Shown here piece after piece: positions 1-11,691 of a stretch of 11,732 nucleotides of DNA (position 1 is the stretch's first letter; each line of letters starts with the position of its first letter). The position numbers were made by a program, and so were the translations under genes. The notes under the pieces were generated by a model. That model worked only from the letters and a program-made list of their open reading frames with translations. It did no database searches and was not told the origin of the DNA. The DNA lies in IMG/VR virus record IMGVR_UViG_3300043447_000408, positions 64,001-75,732 of that record; one strand, 5' to 3'. Origin of the DNA: a virus (taxonomy: Duplodnaviria; Heunggongvirae; Uroviricota; Caudoviricetes).

Positions 1-1
1 A

Positions 2-139
2 TATGAGATGATGTGTCCTAATATTAAATTCTACGATTTAAAGTCGTGGAAAGATATTGAAGAGACTTACAAAACGGTGTATGAAAAGGGTGGAATATCC
101 GTTATTGTCGAATATCCTGAGTTATATTACGAAGCATAA
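2..139 (+). CDS. 3' end of a gene entering from the left; possibly a short transketolase pyrimidine-binding / alpha-ketoacid dehydrogenase E1 beta-like subunit
   Basis: Open frame from nt 2 reads YEMMCPNIKFYDLKSWKDIEETYKTVYEKGGISVIVEYPELYYEA* (TAA 137-139) and is directly followed by a terminator. The 'MCPNI..L....I...Y......G.S.IVEY..Y' pattern resembles the C-terminus of truncated E1-beta/transketolase-like proteins in sugar clusters (from memory, only 45 aa visible). Confidence 0.45.
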   Translation, partial: YEMMCPNIKFYDLKSWKDIEETYKTVYEKGGISVIVEYPELYYEA

Positions 140-170
140 AAAAAGGGACTAAAAGTCCCTTTTTTATTTT
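138..170. terminator. Bidirectional rho-independent terminator between convergent genes
   Basis: Stem AGGGACT (144-150), loop AAA, stem AGTCCCT (154-160), flanked by an A-tract (138-143) and T-tracts (161-165, 167-170), giving U tails on both strands. It lies between stops at 137-139 (+) and 169-171 (-). Confidence 0.9.
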
Positions 171-945
171 ACTCTCCCCAATGTTTTTTACGTAATTCTT
201 GTAAATCAATTGGTTCTCTTTTCATATGACCTCCTTGATTGAAGTGTGCACCTTGTTTAAGATATCCACCCAATAAGTTTCTTCTCATTCTATTTGAATT
301 GTTTGGTTCAGAACCGTGAACAACGTGTGAGTGTAATAACACTACTTGACCTTTTCTTAAGAAACCTTCAACTTTTTTGAAGTCGTGTCCTTCAGGCATT
401 ACACAAGGTTTACCTCTTTCGTTTCTCCAAAATGTTGGGTTGGTTTTAGTTCTTTCCTCATCAACTTCAATTGGTAAAGTTGGTAATCTGTGTGAACCTT
501 CGTAATTCCATACCGCACCATTCTCAGGGTCGTGGTTATCTAACGCGATTGCTGTGTTAATAATCTCATTGTGTTTACAACCAGTGTAGAATGCGTTTTG
601 ATGCATATCTCTACCTAATTGTCCCGGTGGTTTGAAATAACACCAAGTTTGTAATCCTACTGTTTTACCTTCCATAAGAAACTCACAAGCTTCTAATACT
701 TTAGGATGACAGAATAATTTTTCAATCATTGGTGAAATTTTATGTGGGTACGCAAATGGGTCCCACTCACCCCACTCTTTACCATCTTCAGTTGTAGTTT
801 TAGACCTTTCATTTCTTAATCGGTCCAATTCATCATTAACCGCATCACATTCGTCTTCGGTTAACAATTCCAATACTGTCCAACCTTTGTATCTCCAATC
901 AAATGTCATTTGTTGGATTTCTAATTCTGTTAAATGTTTGAACAT
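169..945 (-). CDS. Phytanoyl-CoA dioxygenase (PhyH) family Fe(II)/2-oxoglutarate oxygenase with H-Q-N motif
   Basis: N-terminal GWTVLELLTEDEC, FKPPG..G..MHQN (H115), GAVWNYEGSH, distal VHGSEPNNSNRMRR (H210, R221): typical PhyH layout. Confidence 0.88.
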   Translation of the reverse strand: MFKHLTELEIQQMTFDWRYKGWTVLELLTEDECDAVNDELDRLRNERSKTTTEDGKEWGEWDPFAYPHKISPMIEKLFCHPKVLEACEFLMEGKTVGLQTWCYFKPPGQLGRDMHQNAFYTGCKHNEIINTAIALDNHDPENGAVWNYEGSHRLPTLPIEVDEERTKTNPTFWRNERGKPCVMPEGHDFKKVEGFLRKGQVVLLHSHVVHGSEPNNSNRMRRNLLGGYLKQGAHFNQGGHMKREPIDLQELRKKHWGE

Positions 946-1397: not shown

Positions 1398-2677
1398 ATT
1401 AAATTCTGTTTGATGTTAAAATATTGATTATGATACTTTTGAAATTCAACAAATGAATCAGGTAATCGATATAATTTATTTATTAGATTTGAATGATTGT
1501 GTTCAACAACTTCTCTCATTGACTTGAACCATTCCATTTTATTTTTAACTGAAATTGTCTTTTTAACACTTTCAATAATTGCTTTCATTCTCTCGTGTGT
1601 TGGTAAACTATCATAATCTTCATCTAAGAATTCAGAAAATGTTTTGTATCCCATTTTCTTCATCATCGCGAGACTATCTTTATTACCCATCACCATCCAA
1701 GGATGTCTACAAGCAATTGGTTTATAAAGTTTTTCACTTAAGAACATCGTTTCGTCACTATCACCACAATGGGCTTCACTTACAACACTAACCCAACTAT
1801 CTAAACAAATCTGTTCATTCAATCTTCTAATGTAATAGTTGTCGTCAAATTCATTATTTGGTTTTTCATATATCAACAATGGTAATGGTTCATATATTTT
1901 ATCAACAACCTCATCTGACATATATTCACCTTCAAATGGGTACTGATGTTTAGGAAAATGATTCATACTAACCAATCCATCTTTTAGAATATCATTGTCG
2001 AACATATAACGATAAAACCAAACTCTGTGAGGTCTTATTCTTTTATTCAAACAAGAAAAACTTTTAATATTCTTTTTGTTCTTTTTCTTGTATTCTAAAT
2101 GAGTATCGAAATCTGGTAGTTTTCCTTCTCTATCAAAATGGTAACAGGTCATCCCGACATCTAATTCAAAATGTGCGTATGGGATTACTTTTAACTTTTC
2201 TTTAATTTTATTTTCAATACACCACTTATCATAAATCTCATCCGCAATCATATTACCGGTGACATATACAATACTTGATGGTGGTACTTTATACTTCTTA
2301 CAATGTGTATGGAAAAAATCCCATAACCATCTTGATTGGTACCCTTCAAAACTTTGGTCTAATAAAAGTAATGCTTTCTTGTTTCTTAAATCACTCAAAT
2401 ATTTTGGGTTAAGATATTCAAACAAACTCTTAACCCTTGATGTGTATCCTGTCCAATCTTCAGGACTGTGATTAACTGCGGCAGGAATAACATAGTTTTC
2501 CACATCGTTATCCAATTTCAAAAATTGTAAAAAGGATTCTTTATGTGTAAACCCAAAATACATATTCGTTGCATTAATCAACGGTGCATATGTAAATCTC
2601 TTTATACCTGACGGATTTACATCAGGACAACTTGTAAAGTTGTGTAAGTTTTCAACATCTTCAAAAACTAATTTCAT
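1394..2677 (-). CDS. Putative GT-B fold glycosyltransferase, GT10 (alpha-1,3-fucosyltransferase)-like C-terminal nucleotide-sugar-binding region
   Basis: 427-aa ORF coupled on both sides. FSCLNKRIRPHRVWFY and VSVVSE...FLSEKLYKPIACRHPWMVMG...GYKTF..DEDYD loosely echo the GT10 motifs (F...N...R..FY; F....EN.....Y.TEK...A....P...G). The ORF is certain; the family is tentative. Confidence 0.45.
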   Translation of the reverse strand: MKLVFEDVENLHNFTSCPDVNPSGIKRFTYAPLINATNMYFGFTHKESFLQFLKLDNDVENYVIPAAVNHSPEDWTGYTSRVKSLFEYLNPKYLSDLRNKKALLLLDQSFEGYQSRWLWDFFHTHCKKYKVPPSSIVYVTGNMIADEIYDKWCIENKIKEKLKVIPYAHFELDVGMTCYHFDREGKLPDFDTHLEYKKKNKKNIKSFSCLNKRIRPHRVWFYRYMFDNDILKDGLVSMNHFPKHQYPFEGEYMSDEVVDKIYEPLPLLIYEKPNNEFDDNYYIRRLNEQICLDSWVSVVSEAHCGDSDETMFLSEKLYKPIACRHPWMVMGNKDSLAMMKKMGYKTFSEFLDEDYDSLPTHERMKAIIESVKKTISVKNKMEWFKSMREVVEHNHSNLINKLYRLPDSFVEFQKYHNQYFNIKQNLI

Positions 2678-4131
2678 TAAATAATATTGGGTTTAACATC
2701 TGAAACGTACTCACCAGGTTCGAAATGTGTTATTGCACCGTCAGTAACTTGAACATTAGGTATTGAATAATCAACTTTGATTGAATCATACCATTCGATT
2801 AGTTCGGGGTCATTAAACGTTGCTCTGAAATCTTTATTTCTTCTAACATCATATTGTTCGTAGAAACTCTTGAAGTCGTGCCATTGTTTGTCTTTATCCA
2901 ATTCTGTTTGGTTGTGACCTCTTTCAACAACTTCAATATAGTCAATCAATCTTTCGATTTGTGCCTTCTCGTGAATACTAAATAAAGGACTCTCTTTATG
3001 TTCAGTATACCAATTCTTTAACTTAAGATGTAACTTAGATTTGATATTATCAGGTAATGATAATGGTGACATAAATGACGGCCATCTTAGGATGTTGAAA
3101 TCAACGTTTGGTCTATTTGGTCCGTACTTCTCTTTCAATACTATCATATCATCTAAGAATTCAGTTATACTGAATAAACAAAGACTATTAATTGTCATCA
3201 TAATGGTTAATGAACGGAACTTAGCGTTCTCAATAAACTTAACCATATTAGCTCTCCAAATGTCATATTTTAGACCATCTCTGATATAGTCAGCGTGAAC
3301 ACCGAATGATTCATTACTTGTGTACAAATCAAATTCTTTAATTGGTAACTCGTGAGAGATACTAATTAATTTAAACAAAGTTGCTTCATTCAATCCAAGA
3401 TTTGAGTTAACTGCAAGTCTTAAGTTTTCAGAAGGATGTTGTTTCATTACATCAATGAAATTCCAAAAGTTACGACTTTGTGATGGTTCACCACCAGTAA
3501 CTCTAATCTCTTGTAAAGTCTTTGATAACTCAGGCCACCATTCTAAGAATGCTTGTACGTATGGGTTATTTTCGTTGTGTTTACCAAATTTTTCAGACCA
3601 AGAACCGTCCGCATAATATGCACCTGCACTACTTGTTTTGAACTTTTGATATGCTCCGTTCTCTTTGATATCTTTTGCCCAAGTTGTACTATAACCTGAG
3701 TTACAATAACTACAAGCAAAATTACAAGTACGGTCAAAACTAACCTCAACAGTTTTTAATAAGATGTCTTCTTCCCAAGGAATTTCTTTAAGTGCAGCAA
3801 TTTCTTCTTCAGTATAGATTAAACTCTTATATACTCTATCAGAAATGTTATCACGACCAATATCTTCAATCTTCCAACAATATGAACATTCAGCAGGTCT
3901 GATACCTGTTAACATCATCTTTCTTGCAATCTTCTTGTGTCGAGTATTATGTAACGCTGAAGGATTTGTTTTAATCTCTTCTAAATCAATAGGGTGTGGT
4001 AAAGGAAGATGACAGGAATTTGTGTATCCGTGTCCTAAATGTAAACTAGCGTTGTACCACTTAGCTGCACAGAAACTTTTACTAATACAGTTTAGATTTT
4101 TATTCCTCCATTCTCTTAGTTCGTCGGACAT
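2677..4131 (-). CDS. Radical SAM enzyme with N-terminal twitch (auxiliary Fe-S) domain, paralog 2
   Basis: CxxxCxxC = CNFACSYC (C136/C140/C143), RVTGGEP motif, N-terminal FCAAKW...G..NSCH...ECSYCW (C21, C40, C82, C85), C-terminal DF..F...Y..RR..D....PEL. Confidence 0.9.
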   Translation of the reverse strand: MSDELREWRNKNLNCISKSFCAAKWYNASLHLGHGYTNSCHLPLPHPIDLEEIKTNPSALHNTRHKKIARKMMLTGIRPAECSYCWKIEDIGRDNISDRVYKSLIYTEEEIAALKEIPWEEDILLKTVEVSFDRTCNFACSYCNSGYSTTWAKDIKENGAYQKFKTSSAGAYYADGSWSEKFGKHNENNPYVQAFLEWWPELSKTLQEIRVTGGEPSQSRNFWNFIDVMKQHPSENLRLAVNSNLGLNEATLFKLISISHELPIKEFDLYTSNESFGVHADYIRDGLKYDIWRANMVKFIENAKFRSLTIMMTINSLCLFSITEFLDDMIVLKEKYGPNRPNVDFNILRWPSFMSPLSLPDNIKSKLHLKLKNWYTEHKESPLFSIHEKAQIERLIDYIEVVERGHNQTELDKDKQWHDFKSFYEQYDVRRNKDFRATFNDPELIEWYDSIKVDYSIPNVQVTDGAITHFEPGEYVSDVKPNII

Positions 4132-4170
4132 ATTTTTGGTTTTTAATTATAATATACAGAAAAAATCTTA
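4132..4170 (-). promoter_or_regulatory. Possible internal sigma70-like promoter ahead of radical SAM paralog 2
   Basis: The only gap (36 nt) between 11691 and 993. The minus strand reads GATTTTTTCTGTATATTATAATTAAAAACCAAAAAT-ATG, with TATAAT at 4146-4151 and an overlapping TATATT, but only a weak -35 (TTTATA at 17 nt). The AT-rich background makes such matches cheap. Confidence 0.3.
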
Positions 4171-4911
4171 TAAAACGAATTTTTCAGGTACTTTTTCCAA
4201 GAAATTATTATTTTTAGATTCATCGAAAATAATTCCGATGTTATTAATTGTATTAAAGTTGTACAGACAAAGAATGTCTTTGTAATTTGGATTAGATATT
4301 AGTTTCTCTCCTTGAGTTTCATAAATTGATTTCGCCACTTTAATATCTGAAGTTCCTCTTACAATTGAAAAATGATATATGTCATATTCTCCGTGATGTC
4401 TGTGTTCCTCTACAGGTGAACCAGGATTAGCACATCCTAAGAATAGTCCGCTGTGTTGGTAGTCGTCAATTAAATTGTTTTTAAATCTTAGTTTATTCGA
4501 GACTTCAAAATTAACATATAAAGTAAATGCATTTCCTTGTCTTGCGATTGAGATTTTAACCGGTCTGTTTAAGTCGGTATGCTTTAATCCGTTGAAAGAT
4601 GCGAAATTAAAATCATCCCAAGTATTATCGTCTCCCTTTGTCCAAAATTCAAATGCAAGAATTTTACTTTCATTATTATAAGTCACACCTATATTTTTAC
4701 CAGGTTTACCAAATAAAGTACAAATGGGGTCTCTTCTATAAAGGTCTAATAATCTAATTTCTGCGGTGATTATGTACGAATCCTCGTAGAGAAAAGTTTT
4801 TATTTCCTCGATGTCAGTTTTGTTGAATTGAGTTACATATTGATTATCGTGGTGAGTATCTAAATCCCACTTATACATTACCCAATAAGGTTCTTTATAC
4901 TTTATTCTCAT
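4168..4911 (-). CDS. Stand-alone LamG / concanavalin A-like jellyroll protein
   Basis: Beta-strand pattern KISIARQGNAFTLYVN, LFLGCANP...EYDIYHFSI, and LCLYNFNTINNIGIIFDESKNNN. These match the domains inserted in the two GT7 genes (FYIGAANP...GYFDKFVVF; MVLYYN...ADLTGTQN). Confidence 0.7.
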   Translation of the reverse strand: MRIKYKEPYWVMYKWDLDTHHDNQYVTQFNKTDIEEIKTFLYEDSYIITAEIRLLDLYRRDPICTLFGKPGKNIGVTYNNESKILAFEFWTKGDDNTWDDFNFASFNGLKHTDLNRPVKISIARQGNAFTLYVNFEVSNKLRFKNNLIDDYQHSGLFLGCANPGSPVEEHRHHGEYDIYHFSIVRGTSDIKVAKSIYETQGEKLISNPNYKDILCLYNFNTINNIGIIFDESKNNNFLEKVPEKFVL

Positions 4912-6313
4912 CTCTGATGTTTTTTATAAATTGAGTTAATTCAGGATAGTATTCTTCGCAATCCATCCCTCTTCTTATTTTATATTCGTCAATAAACTTA
5001 ACAAAATCTTTTTTCTCTTTTTCGAATGAGATATCTGAATTGGAGTCTGTTATGAATATTTCTTTTATTCTTGTTATTTTTTCAATCTCCTTGGTTGAGA
5101 ATCCAACATCTTCGATTGATTGTTGTTCATAGAAATTTAAACTCCTATATGTTGAATAGAATTTCATAAACTTCTCACATCGATTAAAGTATTCTACATC
5201 CAAATAATCTTTCAATACTCTGAACCCTAAAAAGTCAGGATATCTTAGATACGATGTGTCTAATATTAGTGCTGAATTCCAATATCGTTCAGTGTTAAAA
5301 TGTTTAAGTTTTAAATCATAGACTTTTTTAATTAAAGACTCATATGAGAAGATACTGAATATGTTAAACGTCGACATTATGACGACAGTTACTTTAGGGA
5401 GTACTGTTAGAATTTTATCAATGTTACTGAATAGTCTGTCGAATTCCAATCCGTATCTAACATATTCTGCTTGTTTACCATAAGCATCGCAAGACGTGAA
5501 TATGATAACTTCTTTTACTCTTTCTTCACTAATAATCTTTTCTAATTTTACAATTAATTTATCAATCAATTCATCGTTAACTCCAAGATTACTATTGATT
5601 GATAGTTTTAATTGTCGGTTGGGTTCTTCCGTTTCAATGATATTTTCTAATACTCTCCAAGTATCTTTTGATAATAGGGGTTCTCCACCAGTAATTCTAA
5701 ACGTATCTAATGTGGTGTATAATTCAGGCCACCATTCCCAAAATGCTGCAACATAAGGATTATGTTCAGTTTGTTTATATGGTCTGGTTTTATTCTCATC
5801 CATTTGTTGAGTACTATTATAATCGGAGGATAGTTTATATCCACCAAACTGATTAATTTCCTCCATCCATTTAGTTGAATATTCGGGACCACAATATGCA
5901 CATTTGAAATTACAAGTGTTTGAAAAGTTTACCTCAACATACTTTGGATTAAAGTCTGCTCTCCAATGTGACTTTGATATTTCATCAAAATATGGTTCTG
6001 ACCAAGGTTCTGCACTTTTAAAAATTCTATCTGAAAATGAATTAGAATTATCTTCAACATTCCAACAATATCCACACTCCTTTGGTCGTTGACCGTTTAA
6101 CATTTCCTTCCTTGCGTACTTTTTAACATTACTATTATGTAATGCCGTGTAGTTTCTTTCAATCTCCTCTAAAGGTACTTTGTGTGGAGAAGGGTGGTGA
6201 CAAGAATGTGTTGTACCATTATGTAAATGCATTGTCACTTGTGTCCATTTTGCCAAACAGAAACCACAACCAACACCATTTAATTTATCTTTTGTTATGT
6301 TAAAATCTATCAT
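4895..6313 (-). CDS. Radical SAM enzyme with N-terminal twitch (auxiliary Fe-S) domain, paralog 1
   Basis: CNFKCAYC (C134/C138/C141), RITGGEP, N-terminal FCLAKW...G.THSCHH...ECGYCW (C19, C38, C80, C83), C-terminal DF..F..EY..RR..D....PEL. Confidence 0.9.
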   Translation of the reverse strand: MIDFNITKDKLNGVGCGFCLAKWTQVTMHLHNGTTHSCHHPSPHKVPLEEIERNYTALHNSNVKKYARKEMLNGQRPKECGYCWNVEDNSNSFSDRIFKSAEPWSEPYFDEISKSHWRADFNPKYVEVNFSNTCNFKCAYCGPEYSTKWMEEINQFGGYKLSSDYNSTQQMDENKTRPYKQTEHNPYVAAFWEWWPELYTTLDTFRITGGEPLLSKDTWRVLENIIETEEPNRQLKLSINSNLGVNDELIDKLIVKLEKIISEERVKEVIIFTSCDAYGKQAEYVRYGLEFDRLFSNIDKILTVLPKVTVVIMSTFNIFSIFSYESLIKKVYDLKLKHFNTERYWNSALILDTSYLRYPDFLGFRVLKDYLDVEYFNRCEKFMKFYSTYRSLNFYEQQSIEDVGFSTKEIEKITRIKEIFITDSNSDISFEKEKKDFVKFIDEYKIRRGMDCEEYYPELTQFIKNIRDENKV

Positions 6314-7755
6314 TTCATTTTTGTATTAATGAACATAGTATTAGGATACAATGTTTCATCTGTTTCTACAACTTCGGTTACCTCAGTTATTTTGTTAAGA
6401 CCTTCGTCTTTATAGTTAATTTTCTTTTGTTGCATTTCGGTAACAAATCGTTTCTCGTTTCTTGCGGTGGTTTCACCTTTAGCCCATTTACCATTCACAA
6501 AACCTTCATCAATATGTGGTAAACAATAGAATTGACCTTCTTTTCTAAATGGTAAAACGTTTTTAACAATTTCAATATCTTCTTCACCAATGATTGAATC
6601 TTTAACAACCGCCATTGAGCCGTTTACCTTATTAGTGAATCCATCTTCAAAATCATAATGTAAAACCAAATCTTCATCTTCTGTGGTTGTAAACACTTGT
6701 TTAATTTCATTTGGTTTTATGCACTTTTTAAAAATTTTCACCTCACCAATTTTACCTTTATAGTATGTTCTTTGGTGTGGACAATTACCCAAAACAAATG
6801 GTTTTACCGCATCCATTCTAGCCAATTCGTATTTCGCTTCGAAAGGTAATTTTTCTCTAATACCTCTAACGTTTCTCTCCAATTCATCATTGATATAAAG
6901 ATACAGTTTATTTTCCTCTTGTGAGTAAGAAATTGTTACCCAAGTCCATAAATTTTCAAATCGTTTTGCCCAAAAATAATGATGTTGACTATTTCTGTCG
7001 AAAACAACCATAGATACCGCTCTCGAATTATTGAATGAAACACCCCAAGTCCACATACCTTCTTTTCTTAATATTGGGTACTCTAAGAATCTATTTTGTT
7101 GGTCACCAACTAACCAAATAGGTACCACATCTTGTTGTTGTTCCGCATTAAATAATATTGAAATGGTATGGTCTGATGTGAAACAAGAACTTATTTCCCT
7201 ACTCGTCGGTATTTCAACTGCCGATGTTTTTCCGTTAAATTTAGCATACTTTTTACTTTCATATTTTTGGATGATTTTACCAGTGGTTAAACCTTCAAAG
7301 TAACATCTCCAAAATAAGTCATCATCTTCTTGTCCCCAATCCCAATAATCATTTGAATACCCATTAGTTTGATAAGCTTGTTCTTTTGTAAATAAAACAA
7401 CTCCGCCAAAGTATTGGTCGTATCCCAAACCATAATTGTATTTGGACAATCTAGTTGCAATGTGCATCGGATTATCTTCAGGATATGAGTAGTCAGCAAA
7501 CACACCATCTTTATCATATACCAACATATCCACATCGTGCCAAGCAACGTAATCACATCCGTCATTAAACGCGTAATGGGCTGCAATATTTTTCATTGCA
7601 CCTCTATTAAAAAGTTTATCGTCAACCTGATGTCCCACATAAAATTTGTGGTCAATATTTTGACTTGTTAGATACTTTGATAAGTGAGGGATTAATCTTT
7701 CAATGTGTTCCTTTCTATTTCGATAAGGGATACAAATTCCTAATTTGTGACTCAT
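6310..7755 (-). CDS. GT7 (beta-1,4-galactosyltransferase-like) glycosyltransferase with internal LamG domain, paralog B
   Basis: IPYRNR, LFNRGAMKN, HDVD (DxD), QYFGGV, NGYSNDYWDWGQEDDDL. A LamG core spans about aa 160-399, then the GT7 tail follows (GQFYCLPH...RNEKRF...EGLN...FIN). Confidence 0.88.
   Translation of the reverse strand: MSHKLGICIPYRNRKEHIERLIPHLSKYLTSQNIDHKFYVGHQVDDKLFNRGAMKNIAAHYAFNDGCDYVAWHDVDMLVYDKDGVFADYSYPEDNPMHIATRLSKYNYGLGYDQYFGGVVLFTKEQAYQTNGYSNDYWDWGQEDDDLFWRCYFEGLTTGKIIQKYESKKYAKFNGKTSAVEIPTSREISSCFTSDHTISILFNAEQQQDVVPIWLVGDQQNRFLEYPILRKEGMWTWGVSFNNSRAVSMVVFDRNSQHHYFWAKRFENLWTWVTISYSQEENKLYLYINDELERNVRGIREKLPFEAKYELARMDAVKPFVLGNCPHQRTYYKGKIGEVKIFKKCIKPNEIKQVFTTTEDEDLVLHYDFEDGFTNKVNGSMAVVKDSIIGEEDIEIVKNVLPFRKEGQFYCLPHIDEGFVNGKWAKGETTARNEKRFVTEMQQKKINYKDEGLNKITEVTEVVETDETLYPNTMFINTKMK
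6559..7278 (-). other. LamG/ConA-like domain inserted in GT7 paralog B (approximate limits)
   Basis: KFNGKTSAVEIP, TISILF, WTWVTISY...LYLYIND, FVLGN...YKGKIGEVKIF.....NEIKQV, LVLHYDF. Confidence 0.75.
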
Positions 7756-9176
7756 ATTCCAACGTTAATGTGTGTTATGTTATTTTCTACTATTTTTCCA
7801 TAAAGAACAAAATCTAAATCTGATAACCCATCGTTTTCGAGTAGTTCATCGTTTTTTGAAACTTCGTTATAGAATCTTAATTGGTTCCACCTAGTTGCTT
7901 GGTGTTTCCATTTATTTTGATAGAATCCATTTTCTTCGTGTGGTAACGAAATAAATGTGGATTCTCTTCTATGTGGTACTTTTACTTTTCTTGATTTGTT
8001 TAATTCCAAGTCAACAATCTCACAATTGGTTATCATACCATAGTTTTGTGTACCAGTCAAATCAGCCAATCTATACCCATCAATAAATTTAGAATTATAA
8101 TAAAGTACCATATTATAATTTTTACCGAATTCTTTCATAATTCCTTCATTATGATGATTCGAAATTTTATGGATTTCTTCTTCGGTTAATATGTCATTAA
8201 AGACAACAAATTTGTCGAAGTAACCCTTAAAAAAACTTTGTTTCTCTTCTCTTTTTGGGTTTGCTGCACCTATATAAAAATGTTTTTCTTTTGCATATGG
8301 ATGTAACTTACCAAATGTATCGGGTGAACCAATATATTCACCGTCTTGATAAACATTAATGATTCGTTCTGTTGGGTCAATTGTTACACAAATATTGGTT
8401 TGGTAATTCGGTTTAATGTTTGAGTTAACATATAGTGCTTGTTTGTCTTTATCGAAGAAACAAACATTATATCTTGAGAATGAATTATATGAAATTGAAA
8501 AATCGTAACCAGGTATTGAGAATATTGTATAATCATCGGTTTCTTTTTCGTGATTACACGTTAATTCATCAGGGAAGAATGAAACAAAAATTGTTAGTAC
8601 TTGATTTGTATTAATTAAGTTAGGACACTCAACATATGCATCAATACCATTGAATTTTAATTTCTGACCATCAATACCTACATTCTTAATTACCAAGTCA
8701 TCTAATTCAATTTTATTCTTAATACAACGAAGTCTTAAGTCATCATCCTCATATCCCCAACCCCAATACTTGTTTGAATAACCATTAATTTTCTTGAAGT
8801 CTTTCATTGGGAATAGTGTAACTCCTCCGAAATACTCATCAAAAATATCTCTTGGTTTTTCGTCTTTGTTTTCTTTAAATCCTGTCGCCAAATGGACAGG
8901 AAAATCAGAATATGAATAGTCGACGTGAAGTGGTATCATATCTATATCGTGAAATACCACATAATCACAATCAAGTTCCTCAGCATATTTGAATCCGATG
9001 TTTAAAAGCATACCTCTATTGAACAACTTTGCATCGTCTTGATTAACAATGATTAATTCAAAAGGAATCGAATGTCTATTAAGATATTTCGTTATTCTCT
9101 TTTTGAATAATTCAAGTTGTTCCGGTCTGTTTCTATACGGAACTATAACACCAAGTTTTTTACTTTTTTTCGACAT
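7752..9176 (-). CDS. GT7 (beta-1,4-galactosyltransferase-like) glycosyltransferase with internal LamG domain, paralog A
   Basis: VPYRNR, NQ....FNRGMLLNIGF, HDID, EYFGGV, INGYSNKYWGWGYEDDDL. A LamG domain follows, then the GT7 tail (STFISLPH...NQLRF...NDGLSDL...HINVGI). Start moved from the TTG at 9191 in the ORF track to the ATG at 9176 (MSKKSKKLGV). Confidence 0.9.
   Translation of the reverse strand: MSKKSKKLGVIVPYRNRPEQLELFKKRITKYLNRHSIPFELIIVNQDDAKLFNRGMLLNIGFKYAEELDCDYVVFHDIDMIPLHVDYSYSDFPVHLATGFKENKDEKPRDIFDEYFGGVTLFPMKDFKKINGYSNKYWGWGYEDDDLRLRCIKNKIELDDLVIKNVGIDGQKLKFNGIDAYVECPNLINTNQVLTIFVSFFPDELTCNHEKETDDYTIFSIPGYDFSISYNSFSRYNVCFFDKDKQALYVNSNIKPNYQTNICVTIDPTERIINVYQDGEYIGSPDTFGKLHPYAKEKHFYIGAANPKREEKQSFFKGYFDKFVVFNDILTEEEIHKISNHHNEGIMKEFGKNYNMVLYYNSKFIDGYRLADLTGTQNYGMITNCEIVDLELNKSRKVKVPHRRESTFISLPHEENGFYQNKWKHQATRWNQLRFYNEVSKNDELLENDGLSDLDFVLYGKIVENNITHINVGI
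7992..8699 (-). other. LamG/ConA-like domain inserted in GT7 paralog A (approximate limits)
   Basis: LKFNGIDAYVECP, LTIFVSF, ICVTID...INVYQDG, FYIGAANP...FKGYFDKFVVFNDILTEEEI, MVLYYN...ADLTGTQNYG. Confidence 0.8.
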
Positions 9177-9372
9177 CGTTAGACTTAACAAACTTATTAT
9201 GGAATTCAGTTAAGTAATATTGAATTCTATTGCTCCATTCTTCTTTATCCACTTCTTCAAACCAAATGGTTAATGCGTCAAGTGAGTTTGCAATTTTTTC
9301 AAGTGCTTTAACTTTCTTTTTTTCAAGGTCCAACATTTCTTGTTGGTTGTCTTTTTTTGTTGTTTCGCTCAT
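9160..9372 (-). CDS. 70-aa hypothetical helical / coiled-coil microprotein
   Basis: ATGA overlap with the upstream GT stop and a 17-nt overlap with the GT7-A start fill the gap exactly. Amphipathic heptad-like LEKKKVKALEKIANSLDAL. Confidence 0.7.
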   Translation of the reverse strand: MSETTKKDNQQEMLDLEKKKVKALEKIANSLDALTIWFEEVDKEEWSNRIQYYLTEFHNKFVKSNDVEKK

Positions 9373-10226
9373 ATTGATATTATTTGTTTTATTAATTTAT
9401 TCCAATTACGGTATCTTTGATATTCAGGTTGGGTGATTCCTAATTCAAAATAAAAATCCTCTTTAGTTACGTTTATTTTAAATTTAGTTTTTTTCAATTC
9501 ATTGTACATTAATTCATACTCGGTTGAATATGAATAATCTTGTTTTAAATCTGCAACACTTTTAATTCTGTTTATCGATGATGAGTCCCATTTAAAATGA
9601 TGAACCTGAACTGAGTGTGTTTCTATTGGTGCAATTAACGGATGGTTCCATCCCTGCCATCTCCAAGTTGTTTGTCCGTTTATTTTAGCGTAGTGTTGAC
9701 CACTTGTGATTTCAACATAACCTTTCACAACACATATTTTATTAGGACAAGCATTACTCATTGGATATCTAAAAAATCCCGCATTCGGATATTGTTCCCA
9801 AATACTTTCGTCCGATTTTAATTCAACAAAATCACCACCTCTTCCTATTCTGTCAATAAAACCACCTCTAACAATATCCCAATTATTCTTATTACAATCA
9901 GATATTAATAAATTCAAACTATCTTCAGGATATAAATGAAATTCATCAATATCGGCAATCACCCACCAATCGTTTGGGGTTTTTGATTTGACAAAATTGT
10001 AAAGTTGTGTAACTCTTTCCCAATCAAATATTCTATCATATTGTGTTTTAACAATTTTAACATTGTCATAACCTTCAATAATGTCTTGTACTTCTTCGTG
10101 TAATTTTGGTCTTTCGTCTGTATTGTAAACGATGTAGTTTATCTCATCAACATACTTAGAATAATGTTTGATGTGATGCTCAATGAGATTTGTCCCGTGA
10201 CCTATAACTGTTAGTAACCTAATCAT
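9369..10226 (-). CDS. GT-A glycosyltransferase, GT2-like (Glyco_tranf_2_4 type)
   Basis: LIEHHIKHY near the N-terminus, WWVIADIDEF (DxDE), GGFIDR, KICVVK..., GQH, and VHHFKW. Confidence 0.75.
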   Translation of the reverse strand: MIRLLTVIGHGTNLIEHHIKHYSKYVDEINYIVYNTDERPKLHEEVQDIIEGYDNVKIVKTQYDRIFDWERVTQLYNFVKSKTPNDWWVIADIDEFHLYPEDSLNLLISDCNKNNWDIVRGGFIDRIGRGGDFVELKSDESIWEQYPNAGFFRYPMSNACPNKICVVKGYVEITSGQHYAKINGQTTWRWQGWNHPLIAPIETHSVQVHHFKWDSSSINRIKSVADLKQDYSYSTEYELMYNELKKTKFKINVTKEDFYFELGITQPEYQRYRNWNKLIKQIISI

Positions 10227-10951
10227 TTTTTTCGATTTATCAACGTTATCCCGCTTGAGGATGGTTTTGTTGATAATATACGAAAATTAAAAAGATTAAT
10301 CAAGTTCCACTCGGGATTTTCTTGTAGTTCTTTAATGAATTTTGCTGGACCATCGAATCGATAGTGGTCTTTTTTAGAATCCTCAGAAACGATTAAAGTT
10401 TCTTCGTAGTTACTATCTGTGTCGTGTATAAAGATTATACCATTATCAGATAATATTTGTGAATAAAGTTCAAAGTCTTGTTTAACGCCATCATATGAAT
10501 GGTCACCATCAATGAAGAGGACATCTATTTTAATATCCTGTCTAATAAAAAAATCATAATACGCGTCGACAGAAGTCGATTTAATAAACCTCGGATAAAA
10601 ATTCTTACGATAGAATGACTCTTCATTATCCAAATCATTAGGCCCACCGACACCGTTACAAGCGTCAACAACGTAAGTAACACCAATGTCACCCCAATTA
10701 TAGTCTCCATTTCCTTCAAATATATTTTGTTTATGTAAATCAATTCTAGCTTGTGTCATAATACGTGGAATGAATCCACCACCTGAACCAATACAAACAC
10801 AATTCTTGGCTCTCATATGTTGAATGATTGAATAAACAAGAATTCCATCACCTATGTGCAAATCAGTTGCCCCGTGTGTCCATCGATATAGTACAGGGGT
10901 ATCATCATTGTTTGTGATGAATTTTTTAATATAGTCGTTGTTACTTATCAT
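10223..10951 (-). CDS. Class I SAM-dependent methyltransferase, Methyltransf_24-like (probable O-methyltransferase)
   Basis: VCIGSGGG (motif I), YVVDA, IDVLFIDGDHSYDGVKQDFELY...L..NGIIFIHDT. Start moved from the TTG at 10960 to the ATG at 10951, which forms an ATGA overlap with the upstream stop. Confidence 0.85.
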   Translation of the reverse strand: MISNNDYIKKFITNNDDTPVLYRWTHGATDLHIGDGILVYSIIQHMRAKNCVCIGSGGGFIPRIMTQARIDLHKQNIFEGNGDYNWGDIGVTYVVDACNGVGGPNDLDNEESFYRKNFYPRFIKSTSVDAYYDFFIRQDIKIDVLFIDGDHSYDGVKQDFELYSQILSDNGIIFIHDTDSNYEETLIVSEDSKKDHYRFDGPAKFIKELQENPEWNLINLFNFRILSTKPSSSGITLINRKK

Positions 10952-11691
10952 TTCATCCAATCAGGCCAAAGTGGTTTTGGTGTGTATCTTTTACTGACAC
11001 TTATCATTTTATCTTTTAACATTTCATATAATGTTAAATCTTGTTGTATTTTAGTTTCAGATAGTTTTGCACTAATTCTAATAGATATTCCTTCACCGGC
11101 ACCATTAACTTCTTTATTTAAACCAACATCACAAAATTCTTTTGCTATTTGTAATTTTTCATAGTAATGATAGAATCTTTCTTTATTAAATCCATTTTTA
11201 TTTATGACCAAAAAATATTCCCACATTGTTTCATATTCAGTAAAATTAGGGCATAATTTATTGGCATAACCATAGTACTTGTTCCATTCATCTCTATCAA
11301 TACTAATTAATTCTTTAATAAATCTTTTCTTTGATTTATGATTTAGTAATGTATCAATATAACTTATTCCTTCACTAAATTCATACGTTTTTAATTCTTT
11401 CAAAAATGAAAAGTCTGTAACGTGTGTATCAGCATCGAGTAGTATTGAAATGTTGTGTTTGTCTAAGATATATTTTGGTAAAATCATCTTATCCGCATAC
11501 GATTTAAATGTTCTATCGTATTGGATTATATGTAAAAATGATGATGAATATTTTGTTGTAAATCTTTCGGGGGTATCTGTTAATATGTAACAATGATACC
11601 CCTCGTTAAGTATATTTCGTATTTTATCAAATGTACCATTAAAATAGTACTCTTCACCAAAACAAAAAATTCCAAAACCTATGTTATTCAT
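10948..11691 (-). CDS. Putative GT-A fold glycosyltransferase (GT6/GT8-like N-terminus)
   Basis: IGFGIFCFGEEY...GYHCYILTDTP resembles the GT6 N-terminal strands (human ABO IGLTVFAIKKY...GHRVHYYVFTDQP), and a DxD motif LLDADT sits at the expected position. The ORF is certain; the family is tentative. Confidence 0.45.
   Translation of the reverse strand: MNNIGFGIFCFGEEYYFNGTFDKIRNILNEGYHCYILTDTPERFTTKYSSSFLHIIQYDRTFKSYADKMILPKYILDKHNISILLDADTHVTDFSFLKELKTYEFSEGISYIDTLLNHKSKKRFIKELISIDRDEWNKYYGYANKLCPNFTEYETMWEYFLVINKNGFNKERFYHYYEKLQIAKEFCDVGLNKEVNGAGEGISIRISAKLSETKIQQDLTLYEMLKDKMISVSKRYTPKPLWPDWMK

Follow-up and report, generated by a model that had tools for sequence, protein, structure and literature searches.

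Nested LamG-like domains in a tandem pair of GT7-type glycosyltransferases from an uncultured tailed phage

Domain organisation of the GT7 pair

Our analysis concerns an 11,732-nucleotide stretch of IMG/VR virus record IMGVR_UViG_3300043447_000408 (positions 64,001 to 75,732; hereafter the window), which forms the last 11.7 kb of a 75.7-kb record with a CheckV completeness of 23%. At positions 6310-9176 of the window, an earlier note made from the sequence had recognised two tandem genes of the GT7 galactosyltransferase type, each with its catalytic domain split by an inserted LamG domain. Matches to both Glyco_transf_7N and Glyco_transf_7C in each protein bear out the tandem assignment. The two proteins, here termed GT7-A and GT7-B, are laid out as follows.

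7752..9176, minus strand: GT7-A (P0002; 474 amino acids (aa) from the ATG at 9176); by Pfam, AlphaFold2 (AF2) model and B4GalT1 superposition
8709..9176, minus strand: GT7-A N-terminal catalytic core, residues 6-161; by phmmer matches to B4GalT7/B4GalT1 and motifs invariant in 69 orthologues
7977..8708, minus strand: GT7-A LamG/pentraxin-like jelly-roll insert, residues ~162-405; by Laminin_G_3 and VIA-align
7755..7976, minus strand: GT7-A C-terminal GT-A segment, residues 406-479; by superposition, tail profile and conserved residues
6310..7755, minus strand: GT7-B (P0001, 481 aa), paralogue of GT7-A; by Pfam, AF2 model and B4GalT1 superposition
6553..7287, minus strand: GT7-B LamG-like jelly-roll insert, residues ~157-401; by Laminin_G_3 and VIA-align
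6313..6552, minus strand: GT7-B C-terminal GT-A segment, residues 402-481 (P402, R404, C411, H414, N433, G452); by superposition and conservation

Residues of P0002 are numbered from a TTG at 9191, an alternative open reading frame (ORF) start. The start of GT7-A is likely the ATG at 9176, because a 97%-identical homologue, P0004, is 474 aa long and the conserved upstream ORF ends at 9160. In GT7-A, Glyco_transf_7N spans residues 9-89 (69.8 bits, cut-off 27), Glyco_transf_7C residues 112-163 (68.8 bits, cut-off 23) and Laminin_G_3 residues 185-341 (45.2 bits, cut-off 27.6), with the 7C match ending at profile position 62 of 78. The corresponding matches in GT7-B lie at residues 3-83 (61.1 bits), 98-159 (65.8 bits, ending at profile position 63 of 78) and 175-352 (30.0 bits, cut-off 27.6). 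Every one of these matches is above the gathering score, and the two proteins share 29% identity over their full length (E 6e-49).

A GT-A fold predicted to span the insert

The AF2 models, with alignments of 89 and 65 sequences as input, reached a predicted local distance difference test score (pLDDT) of 94.5 for GT7-A and 93.9 for GT7-B, and a predicted template modelling score (pTM) of 0.90 for each. By phmmer, GT7-A matched solved B4GalT7 and B4GalT1 chains over residues 11-157 only (E 1e-28 to 1e-24), and we therefore checked the C-terminal part separately. Foldseek alone aligned just the N-terminal 157 columns to B4GalT; VIA-align, used since it tolerates long gaps, bridged the insert where Foldseek did not. 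With predicted models representing both phage proteins, GT7-A superposed on bovine B4GalT1 (1tvy_A) over 218 residues, with a Z-score of 26.7 and a root-mean-square deviation (rmsd) of 2.9 Å (model 5..479 onto chain 174..398), and GT7-B over 217 residues, with a Z-score of 27.6 and an rmsd of 2.1 Å (model 1..481 onto chain 178..399). Overall, alignments to B4GalT1 and B4GalT7 covered 205-219 residues at Z 25-28, both ends of the models included, and the intact GT-A fold that the earlier note had expected of such models was recovered across the insert in both proteins. Since the N-terminal core contributes only ~157 of the 217-218 aligned residues, ~60 come from the tail.

The tail was also traced by sequence. 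A profile built from 54 tails and run against the whole PDB matched B4GalT1 chains only, at their NPQRF...DGLNSLTY...ITVD end, with an E-value of 0.11 that is non-significant taken alone. The tail profile also matched insert-less GT7-like proteins of ~220 aa, ~10 residues past their EDDD (P0191, E 8e-8; P0228, E 3e-7; both computed at Z = 1e6), and in these relatives the stretch '...R-x-x-x-x-G-L-x-P-x-R-R-x-G-x-F-x-S-L-x-H' runs uninterrupted. From the superposition and these sequence tests we therefore place the bounds of the insert at about I161/P406 in GT7-A and L156/P402 in GT7-B. In the models, the final 75-80 residues supply the missing part of the GT-A fold, and the nested architecture is settled as far as prediction allows. 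The proposal that the GT7 sequence halts after EDDD and resumes beyond the insert thus stands, both in the superposition, which runs to the last residue, and in the insert-less relatives, comparison with which lengthens the insert from the ~235 aa first proposed to ~245 aa.

To our knowledge, the catalytic domain is contiguous in all characterised GT7 members. Here, a jelly-roll of ~245 aa lies between the helix that follows EDDD and the His-bearing strand. We regard the interrupted domain as a variant architecture, and as no ground to deny homology to GT7.

Catalytic residues and differences between the paralogues

The core of GT7-A carries PYRNR, FNR, HDIDM (the DxD motif), YFGG and YWGWGYEDDD, followed by a helix. 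The tail continues, in order, with P-x-R-R, F-x-S-L-P-H (containing the putative metal-binding His418), a loop NGF..KW, N-Q-L-R-F, D-G-L and the last two strands. Conservation was compared across 69 non-identical loci, giving 69 A-type and 69 B-type orthologues. Residues F57-N58-R59, D82, D84, Y120, W143, W145, E148, D149, R155, P406, N436 and G455 are invariant in both paralogues; D151, R408, H418, W428 and T433 are nearly so, and R439 is conserved. The DxD residues D82 and D84 (the metal/UDP motif) and the catalytic-base motif W145-G-x-E148-D149-D-D151 align with the equivalent motifs of B4GalT1 and B4GalT7. We take the B4GalT1 equivalents to be FNR228, D252/D254, Y289, W312/W314, E317/D318/D320, H347 and N356. 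From motif order and superposition we infer that His418 of GT7-A and His414 of GT7-B, kept in 68-69 of the 69 orthologues, are equivalent to bovine His347. Judged by these motifs, both paralogues are likely catalytically competent; that one of them is a pseudo-enzyme is ruled out by the invariance of all catalytic motifs in both.

In B4GalT1, Tyr289 disfavours N-acetylgalactosamine (GalNAc). Because a Tyr is invariant at this position in both paralogues, our best guess by analogy for the donor is a uridine diphosphate (UDP)-hexose, Gal or Glc rather than an N-acetylhexosamine (HexNAc). Both proteins are probably inverting, metal-ion-using enzymes with a UDP-hexose donor. Neither signal peptide nor membrane segment can be read from the sequences, and the two proteins are predicted to be soluble and cytoplasmic.

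Fixed differences between A and B occur at positions 117 (F versus Y), 147 (Y or F versus M or Q), 415 (L or S versus C), 421 (N versus E) and 434 (R versus A). Position 415 corresponds to C411 of GT7-B (6523-6525, minus strand), a Cys in 69 of 69 B-type sequences where A-type sequences have Leu or Ser; it is the position of the metal ligand Met344 of bovine B4GalT1. The substitution hints that metal handling differs between the paralogues. The loop from the His to N..RF exceeds that of B4GalT1 by ~10 residues and those of insert-less relatives by 4-6, with G422, W428 and T433 conserved within it. A heterodimer prediction for GT7-A and GT7-B scored 0.00, below the mark, and we draw nothing from this score.

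The nested LamG-like domain

By VIA-align, over ~185-200 residues, the inserts (GT7-A 173-405, GT7-B 165-398) each matched the LamG-like module of PAPP-A at Z 20.9, a putative carbohydrate-binding protein of Bacteroides (4dqa, BACOVA_03559) at Z 20.2-20.7 (20.7 for GT7-A), and pentraxins at Z 17-19 overall (17-18 for GT7-B). In the models the inserts are two-sheet β jelly-rolls of the LamG/pentraxin type; domains of this concanavalin A-like superfamily bind carbohydrate or protein ligands at their rim, often with Ca2+. The earlier identification of a LamG-type jelly-roll at an equal position in both paralogues therefore holds by both Laminin_G_3 and the PAPP-A match (Z ~21). The nesting point, common to both, immediately precedes the strand that runs into the metal-binding His and the flexible loop. 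Because a pTM of 0.90 was obtained for a two-domain protein, the models suggest that the catalytic and LamG domains keep a fixed mutual orientation; the linkers are short.

In each protein the insert evolves fastest: A-type orthologues are 46% identical in the insert, 64% in the core and 52% in the tail, and B-type orthologues 42%, 72% and 60%. Between A and B, identity is 21.5% in the insert, 45% in the core and 29% in the tail. Within each paralogue, the insert has its own set of invariant polar and aromatic residues, namely N191, D219, D230, R240, Y241, T265, Q282, Y373 and D377 in A and E225, R230, N242-R245, K264, W270 and N289 in B; across both, structural glycines are the sole invariant insert residues. 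The glycines favour a reading in which the insert is a structural or assembly module that stabilises the core, mediates oligomerisation or docks onto the neighbouring radical SAM, free LamG-like and 70-aa proteins described below, with the cassette proteins acting as one complex and specificity residing in the GT-A cleft. Such a module would also fit a phage GT7 core that lacks the ~45 first residues of the crystallised B4GalT1 catalytic domain (the aligned chain starts at 174-178), and the tight translational coupling of all cassette genes, which suggests stoichiometric production. However, insert-less relatives of ~220 aa with an equal minimal core are widespread, so the core does not depend on the insert for folding, and polar and aromatic residues invariant within each paralogue point to a binding site more than to packing. 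We consider a purely structural or assembly role unlikely; a module for acceptor selection or processivity, as the earlier note had suggested, is plausible.

A separate observation concerns the end of the insert. A hairpin of the form 'L.LYY.F ... D.SGN.N.G' (7977-8100 and 6553-6680, minus strand) follows the LamG core and C-terminal helix, as in pentraxins, whereas in the canonical LamG_3 protein of a 97%-identical twin contig (L004:4450-5283) it precedes the Pfam core. The shifted hairpin may reflect a circular permutation that placed both LamG ends close to each other for nesting.

A conserved gene cassette

The GT7 pair belongs to a same-strand cassette in the order methyltransferase, GT2-like enzyme, 70-aa protein, GT7-A, GT7-B and N-terminal-twitch radical S-adenosylmethionine (SAM) protein. 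Its remaining members in the window are listed here.

10223..10960, minus strand: class I SAM methyltransferase, Methyltransf_24 (Pfam E 3e-12)
9369..10226, minus strand: GT2/GT92-like GT-A glycosyltransferase, 285 aa (weak Pfam match to Glyco_tranf_2_4; Atlas neighbours GT2-like or GT92)
9160..9372, minus strand: conserved, probably helical protein of 70 aa, its gene lying between those for the GT2-like enzyme and GT7-A in 72-75 of 81 loci
4895..6313, minus strand: N-terminal-twitch radical SAM protein, 472 aa, its start overlapping the GT7-B stop by 4 nt (NCBIfam NF033640, E 7e-94)

All genes of the window lie on the minus strand without exception, with start and stop codons that abut or overlap. 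Gene order and strand are preserved among 81 related loci; the methyltransferase is found in 77, the GT2-like gene in 79, GT7-A in 81, GT7-B in 80 and the radical SAM gene in 76. In the window the GT7-A stop and the GT7-B start share 4 nt; of 79 loci, 63 have this 4-nt overlap and a further 11 an overlap of 1 nt. The 70-aa ORF shares 4 nt with the end of the GT2-like gene and 17 nt with GT7-A as read from its ATG. Its product has a nearly invariant core, LE.RKVKALEKIANSLDALT.WFEEIDK.EWS.RIQYYL, conserved above the enzymes; the C-terminus of many homologues reads PKDPTI(N/D)G, and its Atlas cluster numbers 906 members, all Uroviricota. No Pfam or PHROG match was found for it. The window holds two paralogous NF033640 proteins (2677-4131 and 4895-6313, minus strand), members of an N-terminal-twitch family of unknown function that reaches five copies in some related loci.

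Radical SAM enzymes of the twitch and SPASM kinds are a typical feature of peptide maturation, two are present here, and a small ORF lies inside the cassette. These features bring up the possibility that the twitch radical SAM enzymes and the methyltransferase make a small molecule or a ribosomal peptide, resembling a secondary metabolite or a ribosomally synthesized and post-translationally modified peptide (RiPP). We give this very little credence: the 70-aa protein has a nearly invariant core, a short variable tail and no Cys-rich or Ser/Thr-rich core region, and scans with Pfam and NCBIfam found no protease or exporter genes in the cassette. The near-invariance of its core likewise makes the 70-aa ORF unlikely as a RiPP precursor.

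Beyond the cassette, a 247-aa protein without a Pfam match is encoded at 4168-4911 (minus strand). It occurs in only 22 of the 81 loci, and in 33 of the 81 a second, unrelated-looking family of ~248 aa takes its place. By BLASTP, the inserts show weak, partial similarity to the 247-aa protein (E 0.016-0.037) and no similarity to the canonical LamG protein of the twin contig (E 1.2). Since the former similarity is weak and partial, we do not claim that the 247-aa protein is a copy of the insert. The last gene of the array encodes a PhyH-type dioxygenase (169-945), and directly after it, at 139-165, lies a perfect palindromic hairpin with a GC stem and A and T runs at its flanks. The hairpin is likely a bidirectional terminator that closes the co-directional gene array. 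The T4 late promoter TATAAATA had 0 matches in the window against 2.5 expected, and sigma-70-like sites were at chance level there (65 observed, 63.9 expected).

Phage source and fibre genes beside the cassette

The rest of the record encodes a 1276-aa tail fibre matching T4-type long-tail-fibre PHROGs, an Rnl1-type 'tail fibre attachment' RNA ligase and a Nol-like carbamoyltransferase. By its gene content the source is a tailed phage, because the T4-type tail fibre and the Rnl1-type ligase are in the record and the Atlas clusters described below are 100% Uroviricota. An origin from a nucleocytoplasmic large DNA virus (NCLDV), raised since some of the carrying contigs exceed 300 kb, is ruled out by the phage tail-fibre and Rnl1-type genes and by the Atlas taxonomy.

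Fibre neighbours were counted at the 54 loci whose flank reaches 8 kb or more. At 39 of these, the 10 kb upstream of the cassette contain an ORF on the same strand that encodes at least 400 aa, often more than 1000, and in which Ser+Thr make up 22% or more of the residues (up to 49%; background median 11.4%). Two such upstream ORFs score strongly as PHROG tail fibres. The window's own contig stops short of the region matching the fibre genes of its twin. On the twin contig, an ORF of at least 1220 aa (L004:3-3665) with 31% Ser+Thr and LETSTGSIN-type repeats lies upstream of the cassette, followed by two LamG proteins, a Gly_rich_2 protein and then the cassette itself. Both LamG proteins are similar to the C-terminal region of a 'virion structural protein' in PHROGs.

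The Nol-like carbamoyltransferase and other polysaccharide-type tailoring enzymes of the wider island suit a different acceptor. GT7-A and GT7-B would then be real GT7-LamG transferases acting on a host envelope glycan precursor, be it lipopolysaccharide (LPS), capsule, S-layer glycan or a lipid-linked intermediate, with the LamG domain binding polysaccharide and the infecting phage remodelling this glycan, for instance to keep out superinfecting phages or to alter the cell surface. Enzymes of this kind encoded in bacterial chromosomes usually act on envelope glycans, and it is there that the closest insert-less relatives are found; many peripheral LPS and capsule transferases resemble the phage pair in having neither signal peptide nor membrane segment. 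Yet the cassette consistently lies directly downstream of same-strand fibre and virion genes, and Pfam, PHROG and NCBIfam scans found no flippase, polymerase or lipid-carrier genes in it. To us, a host-envelope acceptor appears doubtful.

Distribution and evolution

A word-indexed search returned 3308 relatives, on contigs of up to 345 kb; almost all of the 120 listed carry the three Pfam domains. An exhaustive search gave 4554 relatives at E <= 1e-3, including ~55 full-length clusters at 50% identity and many compact, insert-less proteins. In IMG/VR, the GT7-LamG pair occurs at no fewer than 544 loci, and the ESM Atlas holds at least 5 clusters with the identical three domains, all Uroviricota; the suggested search for 7N and 7C interrupted by Laminin_G_3 thus reveals a widespread design. 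AFDB clusters gave one full-length match, an unnamed 474-aa protein (one UniProt cluster), and BFVD gave no full-length match, its best being giant-virus GT7s over the core only. Neither tblastn of GT7-A, GT7-B and the GT7-A core against 50,697 GenBank phage records (INPHARED) nor megablast of the window against GenBank phages gave a match, and PHROGs and NCBIfam held no family matching GT7-A or GT7-B. No description of the nested GT7-LamG architecture was found in the literature searched. The architecture, which the earlier note had called unrecognised, is in that sense undescribed but is common in uncultured phages, as the IMG/VR loci and the Atlas and UniProt/AFDB clusters attest.

In 185,579 prokaryote species genomes, the insert-bearing form appeared on ~11 contigs only, all in metagenome-assembled genomes (MAGs). 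Five of the ~11 carry the whole cassette and are therefore probably binned phage contigs. Insert-less GT7-like genes sit in genuine bacterial chromosomes (Azospirillum, Parachlamydiaceae). Five MAG loci (L089, L090, L093, L094 and L100; Spirochaetales, Fibrobacter and others) encode divergent insert-bearing GT7 proteins of ~490-530 aa, sometimes two per contig, without cassette neighbours; the tree places them with the B clade.

The tree, a quick IQ-TREE run on core and tail with the insert taken out, separates the A and B groups (support of 96 for the B group in the Shimodaira-Hasegawa-like approximate likelihood ratio test, SH-aLRT), with one copy of each per locus, and sets 19 of 21 insert-less proteins in a cluster of their own. 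Parsimony favours one insertion that predates the A/B duplication, though without proving it; the node joining all insert-bearing sequences has a weak SH-aLRT of 74. A paper on 'moraphages' (PMC12619734) refers, with no further detail, to four groups of core glycosyltransferases, and may or may not deal with the lineage of the present phages.

Proposed function

We propose that, in a common ancestor, a LamG/pentraxin-like jelly-roll would have been inserted between the post-EDDD helix and the metal-His strand that opens the flexible loop. The gene would then have been duplicated, and the copies kept as a fixed, translationally coupled A-then-B pair within the conserved operon of a large group of uncultured aquatic tailed phages. 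Another enzyme would start a glycan, to which GT7-A and GT7-B would add successive β-linked hexoses. The acceptor would be a protein of the phage virion, the Ser/Thr-rich fibres being the likeliest candidate. Each LamG domain, rigidly docked beside the acceptor loop, would recognise a fibre repeat or the growing glycan and so give each paralogue its own step. We put the probability of this reading, sequential β-hexosylation of a glycan on Ser/Thr-rich fibres with LamG as the acceptor-recognition element of each enzyme, at roughly one half.

The high pTM, the paralogue-specific invariant residues of the insert, the lengthened and conserved loop and the Ser/Thr-rich fibre neighbours are all consistent with a role in acceptor recognition. 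Several points weigh against the proposal. Soluble GT-A enzymes can equally use lipid-linked host envelope precursors. The link to fibres is guilt by association, and 15 of the 54 loci have no Ser/Thr-rich neighbour at the threshold used. Invariance of structural glycines alone across the two inserts would suit a purely structural role, and both the tail-only match to B4GalT1 and the node uniting the insert-bearing sequences are weak.

A bolder form of the fibre-glycosylation proposal would have the LamG domain sit at the loop hinge as an integral equivalent of alpha-lactalbumin, coupling recognition of a fibre repeat or of the new glycan to loop closure, so that A and B together would form a two-step, substrate-gated and possibly processive O-glycosylation machine. 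We hold this bolder form to be improbable.

Comparison with known systems and significance

The animal GT7 enzymes B4GalT1 and B4GalT7 (PDB 1TVY, 1NF5, 1O0R, 4IRQ and 3LW6) share the predicted fold over ~210-219 residues at 28-33% identity. Common to them and the phage proteins are PxRNR, FNR, DxD, YFGG, WGWGxEDDD, the His past the last core strand, N..RF and a DGL..L.Y end. The phage enzymes differ by the ~245-aa LamG interruption, by ~10 additional residues in the loop, where G, W and T are conserved, and by the absence of the membrane anchor, the stem and ~45 N-terminal residues of the catalytic domain. Closer to them are the compact, insert-less GT7-like proteins of ~210-260 aa (Parachlamydiaceae, Azospirillum, Mimivirus LCMiAC01), with 36-50% identity in the core (residues ~4-164) and a matching tail ~10 residues past EDDD, as Atlas and BFVD neighbours concur; these have no LamG insert, lie outside the phage cassette and are likewise uncharacterised.

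Other glycosyltransferases combine a GT-A enzyme with a lectin-like domain. In polypeptide GalNAc transferases (ppGalNAc-Ts, GT27), a C-terminal ricin-type lectin steers acceptor-site choice on Ser/Thr-rich substrates, and B4GALNT3 and B4GALNT4 (GT7) have an N-terminal PA14 domain. We take the ppGalNAc-Ts as a working model for the phage pair. In these enzymes, however, the lectin, a ricin β-trefoil or PA14 domain, is terminal and appended by a flexible linker, whereas in the phage proteins a LamG domain is nested and the linkers are short. A second parallel is lactose synthase, in which alpha-lactalbumin, placed beside the flexible loop of B4GalT1, re-specifies the acceptor; its structure (PDB 1NF5) was among our top structural matches. 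Alpha-lactalbumin is a separate, reversibly bound protein of unrelated lysozyme fold, whereas the phage module is covalently nested.

Precedents also exist for the nesting and for the target. PGAP4, a glycosylphosphatidylinositol (GPI)-GalNAc transferase of GT-A fold, is reported to have a catalytic domain interrupted by tandem transmembrane regions (PMC5785973); it is a precedent for a foreign module within a GT-A domain, but the module consists of membrane helices and the enzyme is eukaryotic and of another GT family. Glycosyltransferases encoded by mycobacteriophages are reported to glycosylate the capsid and tail proteins of these phages (Freeman et al. 2023, cited in PMC12619734), which offers a precedent by analogy for the class of target, though with other GT families, phages and hosts and no nested lectin.

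The insert-bearing proteins form a large family confined to uncultured tailed phages, encoded in an operon that adjoins genes for Ser/Thr-rich fibres. When GT-A glycosyltransferases acquire lectin modules, these are normally added at a terminus; nesting a lectin-like domain where the acceptor loop hinges is a different design. Glyco-engineering makes wide use of B4GalT1; if the insert controls specificity, it would offer a new way to programme a well-understood enzyme. The cassette also supplies genomic context for the orphan N-terminal-twitch radical SAM family NF033640. Because the fixed six-gene operon adjoins fibre genes, self-glycosylation of fibres in abundant aquatic phages is directly testable with recombinant proteins. 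We know of no virion glycan described so far in uncultured aquatic large phages. If the proposed function is true, the cassette would be the core of a virion-glycosylation system in hundreds of them.

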